A DNA stretch of 63,468 nucleotides, filler included, from a bacterium (GTDB lineage: Bacteria > UBA9089 > CG2-30-40-21 > SBAY01), in assembly GCA_040757115.1 (NCBI GenBank). It is 5 parts of 5 records of this genome, joined end to end, with 100 filler letters (N's around TTAATTAATTAA, not from the genome) between each part and the next. Parts side by side here need not be neighbours in the genome. Positions count along the whole stretch, not along the records: positions 55,755 to 63,468 come from JBFLYA010000177.1; 4 more parts are not named here. The stretch is one strand, 5' to 3'. Below, piece by piece: positions 31,866 through 63,468 of this stretch; position 1 is the first letter of the stretch; each line of letters starts with the position of its first letter. The translations under genes and the position numbers were made by a program. The notes under the pieces were generated by a model, which was not told where the DNA came from, searched no databases, and saw only the letters and a program-made list of their open reading frames with translations.

Positions 31866-32043
31866 CATTTACCCTGTTTCTCTTTATCCTATAGAGATAA
31901 TAATAAAGGATCCGGTCATAAAAGTCAAGTTTCTTTTTGTTCACAATCAAAGATTTCACAAACTCTCCCATGAGGAGAGAAATATTATTAAATATTAATT
32001 ATAAATTAATTAATAACTATATTAAACATATTATACGAGGAGG
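31866..32043 (+). promoter_or_regulatory. 178-bp leader duplicated at the window end; carries an outward sigma70-like promoter and an inward Shine-Dalgarno
   Basis: Matches the reverse complement of 63121-63468 once a MITE is removed, with one mismatch seen. Ends in GAGGAGG, 7 nt before ATG 32051. TTGACT-N17-TATTAT lies on the minus strand. Confidence 0.85.
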
Positions 32044-32050
32044 AAAAGAG

Positions 32051-33494
32051 ATGAACCTACTATATTTATCGGCAAGTTTTTACCACATATTGAATACTTT
32101 TACAAGTTCTTTTAAAAACAAACAAAGTTTCAACAACTTTGTGACTCTAACTATTGGTTGGTTACTAACACCAGGACGAAAGACTATTACCCGCATAATT
32201 CAAACTATAGGTGCAGACAAAAGAAAACATCATAGTTGTTTCTACAATTTCTTTAAAAGGGCTAAATGGGACATTAACCATTTAGTCTATGGAGTATTGA
32301 AAATGATCGTTATCACCCTTATCCCAGAAGGAAGCATTGTTCATACTGTTGGTGATGATATCCTAATTCGCCAAGAGCGGGAAAAAGATTCCAGAAACAG
32401 GTATATTCAGAGACTCTGTTCTTTCTACCAAGAAAATCCATGTCTTTAGATGGGGACAAAACTGGGTTACTCTCGGTATCATCGTCAAACTCCCTTTCCT
32501 TAATAATAGATATATGTGTTTACCTATTATGGCTAAACTCTGTTCTAAAAAACAACCTTATTCCAAAAAAGAAAAGCTCCCTCAAACTCGTTACCAGATA
32601 ATGATTGAAATGCTTCAACTCCTTGCGTCCTGGCTGCCAAATCGACAAATCATTCATACCGTAGATGGTGCTTATGCTCATGAAACTATAGTTAATCATC
32701 TCCCTGCAAATGTTGAAATTGTTAGCCAAATTAGAGCTGATGCTGCCCTTTATGAAAAACCTTCTCTTGAAACTCTAAAGAGACGAGGTGCACCACACAA
32801 AAAAGGAAACCGATTACAAAAACCAAAAGATATAGCCAATGACCCTCAAATCCCCTATCAAACTATTCAAGCAAATACCTACGGAGAATCTTCTACCTTT
32901 TTGGTCAAACAAATAACTGCTCTCTGGTATAGAGTGGGTAAAAGTAAACCTTTGTCTATCCTTATTGTAAGAGACCCAGAAGGTAAACACCCAGATGCCT
33001 TCTTCTTTACCACCCTTCTTTCTTTATCTCCATCAATGATATTGGAACTTATTGCTGGTCGCTGGTCAATTGAAATTACTCACCGAGATAGTAAACAGTA
33101 TATGGGAATTAGTGAACCATAACTCCAGAATGAAAAATCAGTAAAAAGACAAATTCCTTTTACTTTCCTCATCATGAGTTTAGTAACCATTTGGTATGTG
33201 AAATTAACACACCACACTAATCTTAAACTCTTTTTACCATGTTCATGGTATTGACACAAACAGACTCCTTCATTCTTTGATATGTTAGTGGTTCTACGGC
33301 ACAGCCTCTGGACTAATCTATTTTTTGGTAACTCTACTTTTGAGGTTGAGATGCAAAAAATTTCCAGGTTATCTTGAACCATTTTTATCCACTCAAAAGT
33401 AGATAATCGCTTTAACAACGATAATAAAGGACTAAATCCTCTTAATTTTCTTGTTCAGGTGCTCGCGAGAGCATCATGAATGACGAAACTTCAG
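32051..33494 (+). pseudogene. Decayed IS701-family-like (DDE) transposase with probable right end
   Basis: Motifs F..L.IGWLL.PGRKTIT, DD.L.RKSGKKI, FRWGQNWV, VDGAY, RWSIE.THRD.KQ.MG and WY..K.TPSF.DML. +1 frameshift near 32372; in-frame stops at 33120 (TAA) and ~33252 (TGA); candidate terminus TGACGAAACTTCAG at ~33481-33494. Confidence 0.8.
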
Positions 33495-55654: not shown

Positions 55655-55754
55655 NNNNNNNNNNNNNNNNNNNNNNNNNNNNNNNNNNNNNNNNNNNNTT
55701 AATTAATTAANNNNNNNNNNNNNNNNNNNNNNNNNNNNNNNNNNNNNNNNNNNN
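55655..55754. other. Artificial contig linker
   Basis: N-run with central TTAATTAATTAA. Confidence 0.97.
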
Positions 55755-58700
55755 AACACTACCTTTATCGGCTCTTTACTGACTATCAGACTATACTCTC
55801 CTTTATTGCCACTATAACTCTTATTCTTGCGCATATCAATCAGATTATCTCTATCCTTTAAGTAGAGATAGTATTGGAGTGGCACAGTGGTAATATCCCA
55901 ACTTATCTTTACTTTCCCTGGCTCTCCTACCTGCTCTACCCTAAATTTCCATTCCTTGCTTGTTTCTACTTCACTGCGATAGTCAGAGCCATATTCATCT
56001 TCCGTCGGTGAAATAAAGTAACACGCAAGATAAACAGGAGCGAATTCTCCTTCCTCTGCTGGTAACATTGGAATTTCAGCAATATCATATCCATCATCAT
56101 AGGCATCACTCGCCTCAGAGCTAACGCCAGCAAAGTTGAATCTATCAGTCAGGCTACCAGCCTTAGCTGAAAGCTGGATTGCCCAACTATCCTTATGTTT
56201 GATTGGGTTAAACTCATCCACTTCACTCTCACTACGAACTTCATTTTCCACCACCCACTCCTCTATCGGACAGAAACTCTTCCCCTCTTGAGAGGGGTTA
56301 GGGGTGTGTTTCCTACCTATCTCCTCTGCTGGAACGAGCATCTCGCAATCCACTGTCACCGGGATAAAATATCCTATCCAGGGACGAAGGACGCCAGGAT
56401 ATGACACCATCTTAAATCCCATCCCATCATAATACCATAATGAACTCTTTATCCAGCCATTTACATAAGCCGTCACCGGGTCAACTACCTCTATTCCTTT
56501 GCGAAACTTTACCTGCGCATTTAAAGCCACCGGGTAAAGATATGGGTGTCCAATATGATTCCACCTTTCAGGCAAACCGCCTTTTAATGGAATAACATAA
56601 TAACCAGAAGGATTAGTCGAACTCCCATAAACAATAATTTCATTATCTTTATCTGCGGTAATCCCATAGCCTATCTCCGGGGCAAAGTTTGGGACAGTTG
56701 AGGCTGGCGGATTATGAATGACCCAATTACTCCCATCGAAATAGACCAATCTGACATTTTGCTCAAAATTACCCCAATTCCACAACACACCTGCCGGGTC
56801 AGGATTCACGGGATGAACAGGAACAGAGATGGATTTGTAAGTTGGATAAATAGCACCAATTTTACCTGAGCTAACTGTGCCATAAGTAATCGTCGTCCAG
56901 ATAGTTGATAAAGTGTCATTCTTGCCATCAGTTGCCCAGATAGCATAAAGTAGTCCTCGCATCGTTACATTAGAGGCAGGAATAGTTCCTCGATACAAAT
57001 CACCACCTACATTAGTCATCACTGTAGAAGAGATGGTTTTTGTGCCACCTATCTTCCAGTATAAAATCGCCTGTTCAACCTTAACATTATCGGTTATCGT
57101 CGCCCTGATTATCATTGGCAGACCTGCAGGTGCTTCAGTAATCGGGGTATGTCCAATAACAGGTGGTATCGTATCTTCAAGGATAAAGAAAAAGGCTATT
57201 GCATACGCCCCTGTTTGGAGACCTCTAACTACAACTGTAGTTGTGCCTGGTGGCTGTATATCTGCTACAAAATAACTAATGAATCTACCATTAGCATCAG
57301 TTGTAGTCGTCGTAATACTTATCGTCGTCCCAAAATCTATGCCTATCTGCTCGCTGGTGCCATAACCATTGCCTATCACACACACAAGTGTCCCTACTGT
57401 TCCTTCTGATGGACTATCTACTTTAATCTCTGGGTGGATAAAGAACAAAAATTGAGCCTGGCAACCTGATTTAATTCCAACAACTATTATACTTTTAGTC
57501 CCATACGGTTGGGTATCTACTATAAATGTCTGCCTAAAAGAACCTGTCTCATCAGTAGAACTAAGAGCAATACTGATGGTCGTCCCAAAATGAATATAAA
57601 TCTCCTCCTGTCCAGCAAAACCATTTCCAAAAACAGTTACAGATGTTCCTACCGTCCCAAACATAGGTGAGACTAAGATAATATTGCCTTTGATAACAAA
57701 CCAACCATAGGCAACACAACCAGAGATAAGTCCTCTACCACTTACACTTACAGTCCCACAGCCTGCCTGTGTATCTACTGTAAATGTAGTCTTAAACTGA
57801 CCTAAACTATCTGTCATCGCCAGAGTTATACTCGGATTGATACCAAAGTCAATGGCTATTTCTTCATAGGCATGATAGCCATTACCAGCAACAGTAACAA
57901 TACTCCCTACTGTGCCATAAATTGGTGTTACCATGGTAATCTGTGCCTGCATCACAAAATATGCCTCTGCCTCAGAGCCAGAGCTAAGTCCTTTAGCCCT
58001 GACAGTTAATGTCCCACATCCTGCCTGAATGTCCACAGTGAATGTAGCAACGAACCTACCAACCGCATCAGTTGTAGTCGTCGTAATACTTATCGTCCTC
58101 CCAAAATCTATGCCTATCTGTTCGCTGGTACCATAACCATTGCCTATCACACACACAAGTGTCCCTACTGTCCCTTCTGATGGACTATCTACTTTAATCT
58201 CTGGCTGGATAAAGAACAAAGATTGAGCATGGCAACCTGATTTAATTCCAACAACTATTATACTTTTAGTCCCATACGGTTGGGTATCCACTATAAATGT
58301 CTGCCTAAAAGAACCTGTCTCATCAGTAGAACTAAGAGCAATACTGATGGTCGTCCCAAAATGAATATAAATCTCCTCCTGCCCAGCAAAACCATTTCCA
58401 AAAACAGTTACAGATGTTCCTACCGTCCCAAACATAGGTGAGACTAAGATAATATTGCCTTTGATAACAAACCAACCATAGGCAACACAACCAGAGATAA
58501 GTCCTCTACCACTTACACTTACAGTCCCACAGCCTGCCTGTGTATCTACTGTAAATGTAGTCTTAAACTGACCTAAACTATCTGTCATCGCCAGAGTTAT
58601 ACTCGGATTGATACCAAAGTCAATGGCTATTTCTTCATAGGCATGATAGCCATTACCAGCAACAGTAACAATACTCCCTACTGTGCCATGAATTGGTGTT

Positions 58701-60100
58701 ACCATGGTAATCTGTGCCTGCATCACAAAATATGCCTCTGCCTCAGAGCCAGAGCTAAGTCCTTTAGCCCTGACAGTTAATGTCCCACATCCTGCCTGTA
58801 AATCTACTGTAAATGTGGCAGTAAAAGTCCCATTTTGATTAGTTTGTGCAGTAGCAATGGTCTTAGTTATCCCAAAATCTATGGCTACTTGTTCATTTTG
58901 CCCAAATCTATCACCTGTTATGGTAAGAATTGTTCCTACTGTCCCAGAAGTAGGCTCTATAAATATCTCTGCAGAAGGAACAGAAATTATCTTAAAGTAT
59001 GTATCAGCACTCAGGTCAGAATTAAGCCCAGTAGCTTTAATTGTAGTCATACCAGCTAATTGTATGTCAATCGTAAAAGTAGCAGTAAATGTCCCTTTTG
59101 CATTGGTAATTGAGGTAGTAATAGTCTCAGTTGTTCCAAAGTCTATGCTAATACTTTCTGTCTGACCAAATCCTTTACCTGCTATCTCTACTATCGTTCC
59201 TATAGTTCCTGATGTAGGGTTAACTATTACCCTTTGTTGAGTGAGTGATTTTAAAGCTATACCGGTATCGTAGGTTTTATCATTCCAGGAACCATTTGGT
59301 TGCTGATGATTACGAATATAATTTAATGCCTGTTTTAAATTTTGTGAGGTTCTCAATTCTGGTTGTCCTAAAAATGCTAATGCTACAATTGAGGTCTCAT
59401 AGATAGTGCTTCCATCCTTTCCAAAACCACCATCTTGATTTTGTTGTCCTTTTAACCAGTTAGTTCCCTTGTTAATAGCACCTTTTATCACTGCTATATC
59501 ATTTGGATGAGTAAATATCCCTGCGTCTAATACTTGAACTAAAGAAAGGATAACTTGTGAGGTACAATATATACTTCCGGAGGTTTCAAATGGGCTAAAT
59601 CGCCAATAGTCATAATTACCTTGACTATATAATAAAAAATTAACTATATCTACATAAACTTGAATTCCACTATAATTAGACGCTAATAATGCCATTAGAA
59701 CAAGTCCTGTATCCAACGGACTACCTAAATCATCCTTCTGATACCCAAAATTTTTATAATAACCATTTTTATACGAGACTAAAATATCTGTTAAAGTACC
59801 TACACCTATACCTGCTGAATTCAAAGCTACTATTTTCCGTGCTAAATAATCACAAACATCGAGTTCAGTTGCCTCGATATAATCTATTGCCCGCAAAAGA
59901 TTACTCTTAGTCCCTTCTAAATCTAATAATGTTTGCGTAACTACACAGGTATCTCTAAACCCGGTAGTATCAGGATTGCCCCACGAATAATCGATATTCT
60001 GGTTGTCATACAACCACTTAACACCATCATTTATCTCAGCATAGCAAAAACTGGAAATAAGGACTACACTTAGCATTAAAAACAATCGTGTCCTGAACAT
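55755..60100 (-). CDS. Large secreted protein: prenyltransferase/squalene-cyclase-like alpha-alpha toroid, eight ~86-aa Ig/IPT-like repeats and a C-terminal beta region; 3' truncated
   Basis: Signal peptide (…SFCYA); QW-like motifs WLYDNQNIDYSWG, WLKGQQNQDGGFG and YIRNHQQPNGSW; repeats P..GTVG..V.V.G.G...E.I.I.FG; no stop before the contig edge. Confidence 0.85.
57294..58798 (-). repeat. Near-identical intragenic tandem duplication, period 771 nt (257 aa, three Ig-like repeats)
   Basis: 57294-58027 matches 58065-58798 with only a few substitutions. Confidence 0.9.
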
Positions 60101-60327
60101 CTTTCACCACCCTTTGGTATATAGTAATCGGATTCAACTGATTAATCAGATTTTCATTAATTTTTATCCGTTTTATCCGCTAAATCCGTTTACTATAAAT
60201 TTCCACCAATTTCCATGAATTTCTATTGTATTTCTATTTGTCTTTTAGTAATCGAATCAAACTAATCTTTTCCTTTAGTTAAATTCGCTTAATTCGATTA
60301 CCATATCTAATTCACAATTCAAGATAC

Positions 60328-60547
60328 GACCCTAAACTCTACCCCTAAACTCTACCCCCTAAACTCTACCCCTAAACTCTACCCCTAAACTCTACCCCGA
60401 CCCTAAACTCTACGACCCTAAACTCTACGCGACCCTAAACTCTACGCGACCCTAAACTCTACGACCCTAAACTCTATACGACCCTAAACTCTATAAACTC
60501 TAAACTCCCCCCGACCTTAAACTACCCCCGCGACCCTAAGCTACCCT
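60328..60547. repeat. Minisatellite of ~15 degenerate (GA)CCCTAAACTCTAC units
   Basis: Directly visible; most units are 13-18 nt, a few shorter; abuts the stop codon of the 60548-61477 gene. Confidence 0.9.
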
Positions 60548-61477
60548 TTATTTTTTCTCTTCACGCTTTTTTAATACTTCCTTTATCTCTTTTATGAATC
60601 CTTTTATACGATACTCTTCATATTCTTTACCACCACATTCAGCTACAGGTATAGTAGGGTCTTTAAGATACTCTTTGAGATATATCTCGAATTCCTCAAT
60701 AGCCTTCTCTAACTCACCTGTTCCCCACCAATAGCTAAATGCTAAAGTAAGATGTGCTTGGTAGTATGTAGGATCAATTCTAAGTGTTTTTTTTGCCTTT
60801 TCTAAATCTCCATAATAATTAGCTTGTTCATGTAATACTATAGCTTTTTCTCTCTTAGTAACTGGTTTTTTTATATAAAAAGTGACTGGTTTAGCAATAA
60901 GTAATCCATGAAAGATGTCTTTATCAGATACAGAACGAGAGTCGTAGATACCAGTAATTTCATATTCCCCTGGTTCAAGTTTAGCAGTTATATCTGGTGG
61001 AATAACCCATCTCGTTCGTACATCTCCGCCTGAACCCACAAGTTCTATTTTATCTTCCTTATAATCGTGTATTTTGGAGTAATACCTACACCAATTAATA
61101 TCTTTCAATTTTTCCTCTCGACGAATAACTTCACCTGATGTTCTTGTAACCTTGTTCACTTTAATTTTCAGATTATCATCCCATCTCCATGTAGGAGTTG
61201 CTATCTTTACTTTAATAATCTTCTCTTTTACTTCTTTTCCATAAGATTTCTCATTTTGAATTCTGTTAAATTGCCTAATACCTGCATTATTAACCCAGTA
61301 AATTTCGAAGGATAGTGGTTTCCCCTGCAAGCATTTATCATGTCCAAGAGTAGAGAATTTGAGTTCCAGGTCTTCTTCCTTTATCGAAGAACTATAAACA
61401 GGAGATATTCCTCTACATATAATTAGGTTTATAGAAAAAATAAATAAATTTGTAAAAGATTTTCGTTTTCTTATCAT
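60548..61477 (-). CDS. Secreted protein, beta-sandwich plus TPR (candidate peptidase partner or immunity protein)
   Basis: AGGAGG RBS, signal-like N-terminus, LEPGEYEITGIY strand, TPR (IDPTYYQAHLTLA...EKAIEEFEIYL). Confidence 0.75.
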   Translation of the reverse strand: MIRKRKSFTNLFIFSINLIICRGISPVYSSSIKEEDLELKFSTLGHDKCLQGKPLSFEIYWVNNAGIRQFNRIQNEKSYGKEVKEKIIKVKIATPTWRWDDNLKIKVNKVTRTSGEVIRREEKLKDINWCRYYSKIHDYKEDKIELVGSGGDVRTRWVIPPDITAKLEPGEYEITGIYDSRSVSDKDIFHGLLIAKPVTFYIKKPVTKREKAIVLHEQANYYGDLEKAKKTLRIDPTYYQAHLTLAFSYWWGTGELEKAIEEFEIYLKEYLKDPTIPVAECGGKEYEEYRIKGFIKEIKEVLKKREEKK

Positions 61478-61515
61478 TGTATTTCCCTCCTTTTTGTGAA
61501 AGATTTAAATTTTCC

Positions 61516-62172
61516 TTATTTATCACTAACCTCAAACTGACTTTTACAATCTGAGCAAAAATCTACGCCAATTGGCATTGTATTCCATCCATCAGCATCA
61601 TTAGTGCCGGAGTGCTCTGGAAGATGAGGTTTTCGATATAGATTCCATTCATCCCACAAATATCTCATCGCACATGAAGTATCACCAGCAGTGGGTGGAT
61701 CATGATGAGCAATTGAGATACCATGTCCTAATTCATGAGTAATATTATGCATTACAGCATCAGCTGATCTATCGTTTGCTCCATCTGGACGATCCCACTT
61801 CTCATCCCATCTCACCTGTTCTACATCACATCTAATTTCGGGATGGTTTTTAGGAGGTCCATTCGGACCTAAGGATAGCCCCCAATGATGATACTCCTCC
61901 CGATCTGAACCTGGACCTGGAGGACCAAAATCAAAATCTATTAACCATAGCCCATGTTGCTCAACAATATGAGCAGTTTTATGGTTAAAATTGACTACTC
62001 TACTGGTAACCCCATTAAATTCATCAGCAGTTATTTGATAATGAACACTCATTCCTGATGCAGAGGTAAAGTTCCCTCGAAGATAAATATTATCCTCATC
62101 ATAAATGAACAAGTCCTTCGTATTTGGATTTGTTCTTACATGAGTACCACTTACAAGAAATCCCTGATACTG
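61516..62172 (-). pseudogene. Start-less C-terminal fragment of a zinc metallopeptidase-domain protein (orphan module)
   Basis: HELGHGISIAHH (HExxHxxxxxH), Met-turn-like CAM and terminal FCSDC. The frame is open upstream of TTG 62112 (QYQGFLVSGTHVRTNPNTKDLFI) to a stop at 62218-62220, with no ATG, RBS or signal peptide. Confidence 0.65.
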
Positions 62173-62204
62173 TGCCCTTAATCCTGACCTGCTTATTTTA
62201 CTTT

Positions 62205-63113
62205 TTACTTTAACAATTTATCCTCACATCTTTTAATCCACTGCTTTTTCTCATAACTATCTGGAAGTTTTTGATACGCAAGTCTTGCTCTTTTATAATC
62301 TTTCATCATATAATAACCCACAGCAATAAATTTCTGGCTATTTTCACTGTAATATGGATAATCAGGATATTTATTAATAAAATTTTTATATTCAACAATT
62401 ACTTGTTCAAAATCATGGAGTCTTAAAAAACATTTACCTGTATAATAATAAGCATGTATTGCATAATTACTGGTAGAATACTCTCTGACTATCTTTTTGA
62501 AGTACTTTAATGCTAATCTATTATCTTTATCCTTGCCATGTAAATTGAATTTTTCAAGAGCTTGTTTCCAAATTTCTAATGCTTTTTTATCTTTTCCGGC
62601 AGGAGGAATTATTCTAAAAGAAATAGTTTCATATTCAATATGTTGAGAGTATATCTCTGGATATTCTTTTTGATATCCTTCTGTAGTATAAATAAATTTA
62701 ATCTTGTAATCTCCTAAACTTAATCCAAAGGGGAAGTCTTCATTTAAATTCCAAGCACAACTGATTGATTGACCTGGTGTTAAATTTATCCCGTAATCCT
62801 TAGGAAAACCCACTATCATAGGCATGAGCCTTGGTTCTTTAGATATATCACCTCCAATTTTTATTATTTTATATTTAAGAAAATGATGTAACACCAATGG
62901 CTCTGCAACTTTTAACGATACTGAACCACCATTTGTCAAAGTGGCATTTACTATAATGGGTTCTCTTTCTAAATATTCATTTTTAGATAAAACTACATCT
63001 AATTTTAGTAGCAATGAAGTTTGATTATTAACAACTTCTCCTGCATTAATAGTGGATAAAGAAATGCTAATTATATACAGCGTTCCACATAACAGTTTTA
63101 GTAATTTCCTCAT
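62205..63113 (-). CDS. Secreted protein, beta-sandwich plus TPR (candidate peptidase partner or immunity protein)
   Basis: GAGGAGG RBS, signal peptide (…STINA), EPIIVNATLTN, LTPGQS, LGDYKIKFIY and TPR pairs (F..IVREYS...YA..AYYYTGKC). Confidence 0.8.
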   Translation of the reverse strand: MRKLLKLLCGTLYIISISLSTINAGEVVNNQTSLLLKLDVVLSKNEYLEREPIIVNATLTNGGSVSLKVAEPLVLHHFLKYKIIKIGGDISKEPRLMPMIVGFPKDYGINLTPGQSISCAWNLNEDFPFGLSLGDYKIKFIYTTEGYQKEYPEIYSQHIEYETISFRIIPPAGKDKKALEIWKQALEKFNLHGKDKDNRLALKYFKKIVREYSTSNYAIHAYYYTGKCFLRLHDFEQVIVEYKNFINKYPDYPYYSENSQKFIAVGYYMMKDYKRARLAYQKLPDSYEKKQWIKRCEDKLLK

Positions 63114-63175
63114 GGTAAGACCTCCTCGTATAATATGTTTAATATAGTTATTAATTAATTTATAATTAATATTTA

Positions 63176-63342
63176 ACCTGGAATCGGCAAGTGAAAGGGT
63201 GATTAATCAATTAACTCCTTACGGCATAAACAGATATATACGATTCAAAAGTGTAGATTTCTCACTTTGCTCGAAATGACAGAAAAAGACTTTTAACTCT
63301 CATTCCGAGCGTAGCGAGGAATCTTACTTGCCGATTTCAGGT
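63176..63342. mobile_element. 167-bp MITE with 17-bp TIRs and TTA target duplication, carrying two REP-like hairpins
   Basis: ACCTGGAATCGGCAAGT ... ACTTGCCGATTTCAGGT. The empty site is visible at ~31985-31995. Contains GATTTCTCACTTTGCTCGAAATGACA and TCATTCCGAGCGTAGCGAGGAATCT. Confidence 0.85.
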
Positions 63343-63405
63343 TTAATAATATTTCTCTCCTCATGGGAGAGTTTATGAAATCTTTGATTGTGAACAAAAA
63401 GAAAC

Positions 63406-63434
63406 TTGACTTTTATGACCGGATCCTTTATTAT
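63406..63434 (+). promoter_or_regulatory. Sigma70-like promoter pointing out of the window
   Basis: TTGACT-N17-TATTAT, followed by an ATG at the last three bases (63466-63468). Confidence 0.55.
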
Positions 63435-63468
63435 TATCTCTATAGGATAAAGAGAAACAGGGTAAATG

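Follow-up and report, generated by a model that had tools for sequence, protein, structure and literature searches.

On the minus strand of a 63,468-nucleotide stretch of bacterial DNA (assembly GCA_040757115.1; GTDB lineage UBA9089, CG2-30-40-21, SBAY01), a start-less reading frame that encodes a metzincin-like catalytic domain lies between two genes for exported proteins of 302 and 309 amino acids (aa). This stretch, referred to here as the window, consists of five parts of five records joined with 100 filler letters between one part and the next; the locus falls in the part taken from JBFLYA010000177.1 (positions 55,755 to 63,468), and all coordinates count along the window. On balance, we consider it rather probable that the middle frame is a silent orphan cassette, in which an exchangeable catalytic domain, here called type A, is kept together with its cognate partner gene, the one encoding the 309-aa protein. 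A sequence-only reading of the window had suggested a polymorphic-toxin-like array in which secreted metallopeptidase tips are exchanged together with their partners. Judged from sequence comparisons, that suggestion appears largely borne out at the level of the family, and at this locus it seems to be the best, not the sole, reading.

The locus and its headless fragment

The three frames lie head to tail, all on the minus strand: the 302-aa open reading frame (ORF), the start-less frame and the 309-aa ORF. The sequence-only reading had described this arrangement correctly, and the strings that it quoted from the middle frame, QYQGFLVSGTHVRTNPNTKDLFI, HELGHGISIAHH, CAM and FCSDC, were all found there. 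In terms of the types introduced below, the order is the partner of tip type C (302 aa), the headless tip of type A, and the partner of type A (309 aa). The features of the locus are as follows.

62205..63113, minus strand: w302, a 302-aa exported protein of partner type with a signal-like N-terminal segment, a beta-rich half and a C-terminal tetratricopeptide repeat (TPR) region (ORF, Pfam, homology)
61516..62217, minus strand: copy of the type-A catalytic domain, 5'-truncated, a 233-codon frame from stop to stop (homology, AlphaFold2 model)
62112..62187, minus strand: junction remnant, with a degraded SGLRAQYQGF in place of GDGLSRYEEYRGF, followed by an intact LVSGTHVRTNPNTKDL (alignments)
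61702..61737, minus strand: zinc-binding motif HELGHGISIAHH (direct reading; its H, E, H and H invariant in alignments A1 and A4)
61666..61674, minus strand: C-A-M, the presumed Met-turn (C invariant and M nearly invariant in A1; M invariant in A4)
60548..61477, minus strand: w309, a 309-aa exported partner protein of the type cognate to the type-A catalytic domain (ORF, homology)
63121..63468, minus strand: multi-copy repeat abutting the start of the 302-aa gene (inverted repeats I2, 99%, and I6, 100%; read depth)
63172..63341, no strand given: insertion of 170 bp inside the multi-copy repeat, resembling a miniature inverted-repeat transposable element (MITE) (terminal inverted repeats, TTAAA duplication, empty site)

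Both outer genes have a strong and well-spaced Shine-Dalgarno sequence: the 302-aa gene starts with an ATG at 63113 with GAGGAGG 7 nt upstream, and the 309-aa gene with an ATG at 61477 preceded by AAGGAGGG. Both proteins open with a basic-then-hydrophobic segment that, read by eye, resembles a signal peptide. The first possible start of the middle frame is a TTG at 62112, with no ATG, GTG or TTG before it, and the next is an ATG at 62055; direct reading found no spaced Shine-Dalgarno sequence ahead of either. The 302-aa gene and the fragment are joined in real DNA and not by a scaffolding error, because an independent Logan contig of sequencing run X1 (1122 nt, 0 mismatches) spans 62028..63149 and includes this junction. 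A scan for promoters and terminators was uninformative: it gave 21 promoter-like sites where 15.2 were expected, and the stretch from the 302-aa gene to the fragment showed no terminator.

Judged by homology, the fragment is the final third, C-terminal and start-less, of a long secreted protein. Its match to P0003 (519 aa, partial) has E=1.9e-120 and 79% identity across 94% of the frame. Searches among proteins of similar length returned only a 179-aa ORF, P0001 (79%), and one protein of 375 aa, and searches for longer proteins returned P0003, P0004 (637 aa, 51%) and five proteins of 693-1141 aa. P0048, a protein of 704 aa in the same 90% cluster as P0004, contains all of P0004 and has a signal peptide at its start. 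In a tblastn search, residues 302-519 of P0003 and 481-703 of P0048 align to 62172..61519; overall the homology extends from about 62187/62172 to 61519 and is limited to the last 218-227 residues of P0003 and P0004. No other part of P0003, P0004 or P0048 was found by tblastn anywhere in the 63-kb window, and the missing N-terminal part was not found there.

The fragment comprises 223 codons without a stop or frameshift, and every residue of the catalytic domain that is invariant in the family is present. Its last 120 residues are about 93% identical to those of P0003, and the differences gather in the N-terminal third and in one patch from EQHGL to GPPKN, which also differs in P0001. This uneven divergence fits recent displacement and selection on coding capacity alike. 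At the junction, the window reads SGLRAQYQGF where the family has an invariant G-D-G..Y-E-E-Y-R-G-F, with the downstream part retained. Variant contigs in runs X1 and X2 match the fragment up to 62163 and then read DGLSRYEEYR (minus strand), so a relative with an intact junction is present in the same samples; these contigs also carry a change giving KDV, as in P0003. Prediction of a complex between the fragment and the 309-aa protein gave a score of 0.01 without controls, which is evidence in neither direction.

A metzincin-like family with exchangeable tips and partner genes

A profile search of 1.84 billion representatives returned 3345 clusters at E<=1e-3 and 1596 at E<=1e-30. The members are mostly 650-850 aa long, and the conserved part is the C-terminal ~450 residues. 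Their layout consists of a signal peptide, a variable N-terminal region, a conserved immunoglobulin (Ig)-like module, a linker with the consensus GDGLSxYEEYRGF..HxRTxP..KDLF and the catalytic domain, after which a partner gene follows. Among 401 genomes of the phylum of G002, only distant relatives were found (identity <=41%), and a contig scan with a generic pattern around HELGH yielded at least six loci, all distant.

The family seems to be undescribed, with neither a Pfam model nor a publication found. Neither the fragment nor any of nine relatives, searched at E up to 1 or 0.1, gave a Pfam match above threshold. Pfam includes models of the Tox-MPTase1-5, HopH1 and ALF metallopeptidase toxin families, and no Tox-MPTase, HopH1 or ALF family was among the matches of these ten sequences. 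In the literature on metzincins, immunity and polymorphic toxins nothing was found on the family, nor was the string EEYRGF found; the supplements of Zhang et al. 2012 may add toxin and immunity families.

The catalytic fold was examined in two models. The AlphaFold2 model of the fragment, built on a 40-row alignment, has a predicted local distance difference test score of 75.3, and its top Foldseek matches are all metzincins, namely archaemetzincin (E 4.7e-4), snake-venom proteases and snapalysin, at template-modelling (TM) scores of just 0.3-0.4. A profile search of PDB sequences gave marginal matches (best E 0.0033), nearly all of them metzincins. The model of P0004 is confident from residue 195, with an Ig-like or cohesin-like sandwich at residues 232-374. 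Its residues 415/429-637 were compared by VIA-align and gave Z scores of 8.8 for archaemetzincin, 8.6 for snapalysin and 8.4 for snake-venom or adamalysin-type proteases over 125-146 aligned residues. The catalytic fold in this model starts at KDLF (residue about 429), which makes the GDGLSRYEEYRGF..H.RT.P motif, as modelled, the linker that joins the Ig-like and catalytic domains. Because the fold starts at KDLF and the linker motif precedes it, the window copy keeps a complete catalytic domain and a damaged linker.

The motif HELGHGISIAHH places a third histidine at the metzincin spacing of HExxHxxGxxH/D, with Ser replacing Gly, and C-A-M-R-Y is present downstream of it. The alignment and the model together suggest that the M of C-A-M-R-Y forms the Met-turn. 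With its zinc motif, presumed Met-turn and cysteines preserved, the fragment holds a complete metzincin-like catalytic domain and is predicted to encode a peptidase. Fold and zinc site are shared with the metzincin clan (archaemetzincin, snapalysin, adamalysin/ADAM), whereas the Ser in place of the usual Gly of HExxHxxGxxH, the family's own Ig-like module and linker, and the marginal sequence matches set the family apart. Two relatives depart from the common plan. The minimal member at L083 (547-3718) has 373 aa with a signal peptide, one beta domain, the linker and the metzincin domain, and upstream of it lies a gene for a 362-aa secreted protein in which the same beta domain occurs twice. 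At L091 (430-2262) the second zinc-binding histidine is replaced (HELGN), and additional Asp-rich calcium-type repeats lie beside the linker; this member may be an inactive peptidase.

Exchange was assessed in 128 of 241 family proteins, those with the linker motif, an HExxH, at least 120 residues on either side and no X, by comparing the N-module (the 150 residues before the linker) with the C-domain (the part after KDLF). The sequence-only reading had named the YxGF...HxRTxP..KDLF segment as the junction and expected variable C-termini behind it, and both expectations agree with the comparison. Across 400 random pairs the median C-domain identity is 27%. Among 11 pairs with 70-90% N-module identity the median is 75%, and two of these pairs fall to 24% and 26%, the level of random pairs; of 14 pairs at 60-70%, three have C-domain identities of 32% or less. 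The two extreme pairs are P0003/P0124 (N-module 79%, C-domain 24%) and L047/L074 (83% and 26%). In both alignments the identity persists through the linker and is lost right after KDxFIxDEN, and the window fragment starts at the same segment. The C-domain of P0124 is 63% identical to that of L047, while their N-modules share just 39%. P0124 thus combines an N-module of P0003 type with a C-domain of L047 type, which shows that the catalytic domain has passed from one lineage to another and that the linker is the breakpoint. On the same kind of N-module, P0003 has a tip of type A and P0124 one of type C. The partners of L047 and L074 are also unlike each other (306 aa vs 216 aa, 22% local identity). 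Comparison of these sequences shows exchange of the catalytic domain together with the partner gene between lineages at the linker; the co-variation of partner and tip rests on a handful of cases because close pairs are few.

Partner genes were surveyed in metagenome contigs scanned with the linker motif, which gave 343 relatives among 600 pattern matches, of which 80 loci were kept. A partner was counted where a family gene had at least 900 nt downstream and an iterated hidden Markov model (HMM) found the partner within -200..+400 nt, excluding hits that covered fewer than 150 positions of the C-domain model. By this count, a 309-type partner lies directly downstream in 48/69 loci, with a rate of 44/53 for long C-domains and 4/17 for short ones. 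At L001, L003, L004 and L005 the gene immediately after the family gene encodes a protein of signal-peptide or lipoprotein type that has a TPR at its C-terminus. Another exported neighbour combines a TPR with a domain like copper-amine-oxidase-N1, by Pfam at L083 and by reading at L002, L006, L019, L038, L041 and L067. The expectation of a partner gene downstream of every homologue therefore holds in part: the partner is a conserved neighbour, and further loci carry other partner types, but it is not invariable.

Both outer proteins of the window fit into this scheme. The 309-aa protein has homologues encoded downstream of the family gene at L001 and at many other loci, and it is 63-67% identical by BLASTP (65-73% in local alignments) to P0014, P0016 and P0021. 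By accession order, P0001 adjoins P0014 on a 2252-bp contig, and P0003 adjoins P0016, with P0021 two genes on, past one gene, on a 4333-bp contig. The closest relative of the 302-aa protein is the gene directly behind the metzincin gene of L047 (phmmer 6.1e-29; BLASTP 3e-31, 30% over 235 aa). This partner is the sole strong relative of w302 among all ORFs of the loci, and the 302-type protein is the neighbour type at L047. On this homology, the 302-aa protein belongs to the partner type that goes with another catalytic domain, type C, which P0124 and L047 carry.

The sequence-only reading had called the two outer proteins very divergent and yet alike in size and layout. Their similarity is weak but real (BLASTP E=1e-4, 22% over 129 aa), and they share ESM-Atlas clusters by features (0.95, 0.96) and by structure (TM 0.56-0.63). 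The TPR is recognised in w302 (Pfam TPR_6, 2.7e-9), whereas in w309 it stays below the Pfam threshold. An Ig-like identity of their N-terminal halves and a BsuPI-like fold of the partner's beta half, at a TM score below 0.5, are leads only.

An array of truncated paralogues with different tips, as the sequence-only reading had supposed, exists at L047, although no full-length gene stands beside the window fragment. In L047 (1-12933), at least four consecutive genes have N-terminal stretches that are 79-84% identical over 128-217 residues, followed by different, Pfam-less C-terminal halves. A signal peptide is present in the first gene alone; the others begin within the shared region. Each array gene is followed by a small signal-peptide protein (248, 152, 306 and 226 aa), and the Ig-like module with the metzincin domain is one of the alternative C-terminal halves. 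This layout is that of polymorphic toxin loci as defined by Zhang et al. 2012 (PMC3482391).

Origin of the fragment

In the reading that we favour, a cassette of the type-C catalytic domain and the 302-aa partner would have recombined into a full-length gene at the linker, and the former type-A tip would have been pushed downstream together with the 309-aa partner. Displacement of a type-A tip by a type-C cassette would account for a scarred junction that lies 15-35 nt past the stop codon of the 302-aa gene and is followed by a frame without a start codon, ribosome site or signal peptide. By analogy, the partner would act as an exported inhibitor specific to the peptidase ('immunity'), and the orphan tip might be able to recombine back onto a full-length gene.

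The DNA upstream of the 302-aa gene bears on this proposal. The contig and the window both end inside a repeat, 355 nt upstream of the gene. The 348 nt at 63121-63468 match, at 99-100% identity, a sequence at 31866-32043 that precedes a split DDE transposase, whose insertion sequence (IS)-type ORFs lie on the plus strand at 32051-32449 and 32514-33122 (Pfam DDE_5, DDE_Tnp_1). The 178-nt 5' flank of this transposase, including its ribosome site, recurs directly before the start codon of the 302-aa gene. In run X1 the repeat has a depth of about 2100-2200 against 231 in the unique part, roughly ninefold. It contains the MITE-like element of 170 bp, with 16-nt terminal inverted repeats and a duplicated 5-nt TTAAA. 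The corresponding empty site was found at 31988-31992 and again as the joint 63171->63342 in a high-depth Logan contig, where 5 letters fit both sides. The possibility that a 47-aa open frame at 63324..63467 represents the tail of an upstream gene was rejected, since the frame lies within the repeat, which recurs at 31866-31992, behind a giant gene.

Several observations weigh against the orphan-cassette reading. The evidence for swapping consists of two strong pairs and three weaker ones among the 14 at 60-70% N-module identity. Just ~25 junction codons are left for recombination, and the most conserved part of them is degraded. No full-length gene lies next to the fragment; the upstream side is occupied by the IS-linked repeat with its MITE, where the contig ends, and a rearrangement by mobile DNA could have produced the truncation without further meaning. 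As for toxin delivery, only Sec signal peptides were found (on P0048 and the first L047 gene) and no delivery machinery, and no Pfam trafficking domain was detected on P0003, P0004, P0005, P0007 or P0009. Orphan copies also appear to be scarce. Even at E up to 1, the C-domain model matches a second time in only 2 of 86 loci (L006 and L018), and neither of these second copies is headless in the manner of the window; 39 of the 86 extend for 3 kb or more downstream. Five metagenome-assembled genomes (MAGs) with nine matches showed no such headless copy either, in a partial check in which one of five new places was read. The five places are L091, which is full length, full-length or contig-truncated genes at L001, L003 and L004, and C228, which is cut by the start of its contig.

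A plain dead remnant is a serious rival, if on the unlikely side. On this account, protease-partner cassettes once stood in tandem, as two full-length cassettes still do at L018, and a deletion or IS rearrangement removed the 5' two-thirds of the second protease gene and left a recent pseudogene. The IS-linked repeat with its MITE directly upstream, the contig end within it, and the rarity of orphan metzincin copies in the family would all suit such a history, as would the absence of a start codon, ribosome site and signal peptide and the decay of the family's most conserved motif at the fragment's 5' end. However, the break falls exactly where relatives have exchanged domains, and the partner upstream belongs not to a second type-A cassette but to an alternative tip type that occurs on the same N-module in P0124. 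The 223 open codons, the retained invariant residues and the confinement of divergence to one patch also speak against decay, although a recent loss is still compatible with them.

The remaining accounts are considerably less probable than a dead remnant. It is improbable that the frame encodes a stand-alone, leaderless peptidase of 198 aa (from TTG 62112) or 179 aa (from ATG 62055). P0001, from another MAG, is annotated with 179 aa from the equivalent Met and adjoins a 309-type partner, a short ORF at L006 begins with MGKVKDMF and carries HELGH, and translation from TTG 62112 would yield nearly the whole domain since the catalytic fold starts at KDLF. Yet neither start has the spaced Shine-Dalgarno sequence that is strong in both neighbours, and homology runs 20 codons upstream of the TTG, with 13/20 residues identical to P0003. 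A secreted-type protease lacking both signal peptide and pro-region would, moreover, stay in the cytoplasm. With regard to stand-alone homologues of ~200 aa with a real start, which the sequence-only reading had held to be contrary evidence, the best 150 family representatives all have at least 375 aa, in a ranking that favours long proteins, and P0001 is the one annotated at 179 aa. Still less credible is a -1 frameshift, with a slip at A-AAG before the TAA of the 302-aa gene, that would fuse the exported partner to the metzincin domain. The fragment does lie in the -1 frame, which opens at 62217, four codons before the 302-aa stop, with an overlap of 13 nt; the last sense codon is AAG preceded by A, and L083 naturally fuses a similar beta domain to the junction and metzincin. 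Against it, there is no canonical X XXY YYZ heptamer, no stimulatory structure was seen, none having been sought, the overlap is short enough to have arisen by chance, and no relative fused in this way turned up among proteins of up to 2000 aa. The least believable account is an assembly artefact that joined two unrelated pieces. N-runs in the window and strain variants in the region might have invited one, but the zero-mismatch Logan contig at 62028..63149 crosses the junction, and contigs of the window type have similar depths of 231-334.

Other features of the window lie outside the locus. On the plus strand, 2274-31787 is occupied by the giant gene, a single ORF of 9837 codons with a signal-like start and many repeated units (repeat families D1-D15), which stops shortly before an N-run. 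In the 448-nt spacer that separates the 309-aa gene from its neighbour, positions 60398-60493 hold roughly six tandem units of 15-17 nt (CGACCCTAAACTCTA), with a strongly negative GC skew. At 55703-60100 (minus strand), a 1465-aa secreted protein has an N-terminal part like the C-terminal region of squalene-hopene cyclase (Pfam 2.4e-8). Its gene contains many repeated units, among them a 300-nt duplicate (96% identical) at a distance of 771 nt, and has an N-run close to the 3' end. Three pairs of inverted repeats, 89-97% complementary (369-467/55531-55629, 41946-42087/48235-48376 and 2095-2191/44876-44972), are scattered through the window and are probably other multi-copy elements.

Comparison with known systems and biological meaning

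Orphan C-terminal tip modules are known from contact-dependent inhibition (CDI), Rhs and MAF loci (cdiA-CT/cdiI, Rhs-CT and MafB-CT). The window locus resembles them in its start-less tip at a conserved junction and in a small gene that changes with the tip, and the family resembles polymorphic toxins in a shared N-terminal part, a sharp difference past the junction and arrays of truncated paralogues, here at L047 (PMC3482391). The differences are considerable. Unlike the CDI, Rhs and Maf modules, the tip here is a metzincin-like peptidase of ~200 aa, the junction is the GDGLSxYEEYRGF..KDLF linker rather than VENN, PxxxxDPxGL or similar, and the partner is an exported 300-aa beta/TPR protein rather than a small cytoplasmic one. 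Only a Sec signal was seen, with no type V, VI or VII secretion system or Rhs shell; the window is without a full-length gene, and toxicity and immunity are putative here.

Polymorphic toxins include a Sec-dependent class, and small zincin-like tips, mostly on RHS proteins, are described among them as Tox-MPTase1-5, HopH1-like, ALF-MPTase and PVC-metallopeptidase; for most of these tips no immunity protein is listed (Zhang et al. 2012, PMC3482391). These tips and the present family have in common an HExxH zinc peptidase as a variable C-terminal tip, whereas HExxHxxxxxH with a Met-turn and a metzincin fold distinguishes the family from those tips as described there.

Exported metalloproteases and their inhibitors offer a second comparison. 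Serralysin or alkaline protease is encoded beside Inh/AprI, and snapalysin beside sermetstatin, and both inhibitors are exported. Neither of these systems is known to swap cassettes. A secreted metzincin with a specific exported inhibitor may be a working likeness to the present pair (PDB 1smp, 4hx3), although Inh/AprI and sermetstatin have no link in sequence or fold to the 302- and 309-aa proteins.

Taken more broadly, and as a tentative suggestion, the family may represent Sec-exported polymorphic effectors that are widespread in uncultivated environmental bacteria, with a metzincin and a beta/TPR inhibitor traded as a cassette and a headless reservoir, and with a role in extracytoplasmic kin discrimination. 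Should the reading fail, the locus would still clearly illustrate a conserved pairing of protease and partner genes of which one copy has decayed. The junction motif is in itself a simple handle for finding further tips. If the reading is right, a family of thousands of metagenome clusters would gain a working hypothesis, in which an exported protease acts as the effector, a cognate exported protein neutralises it, and cassettes swapped at a defined junction create the diversity. The logic of polymorphic toxins would then extend to envelope or extracellular metzincins and to large TPR-type partners, and the type A/309-aa and type C/302-aa pairs would provide matched and mismatched sets of protease and partner in which specificity could be studied.

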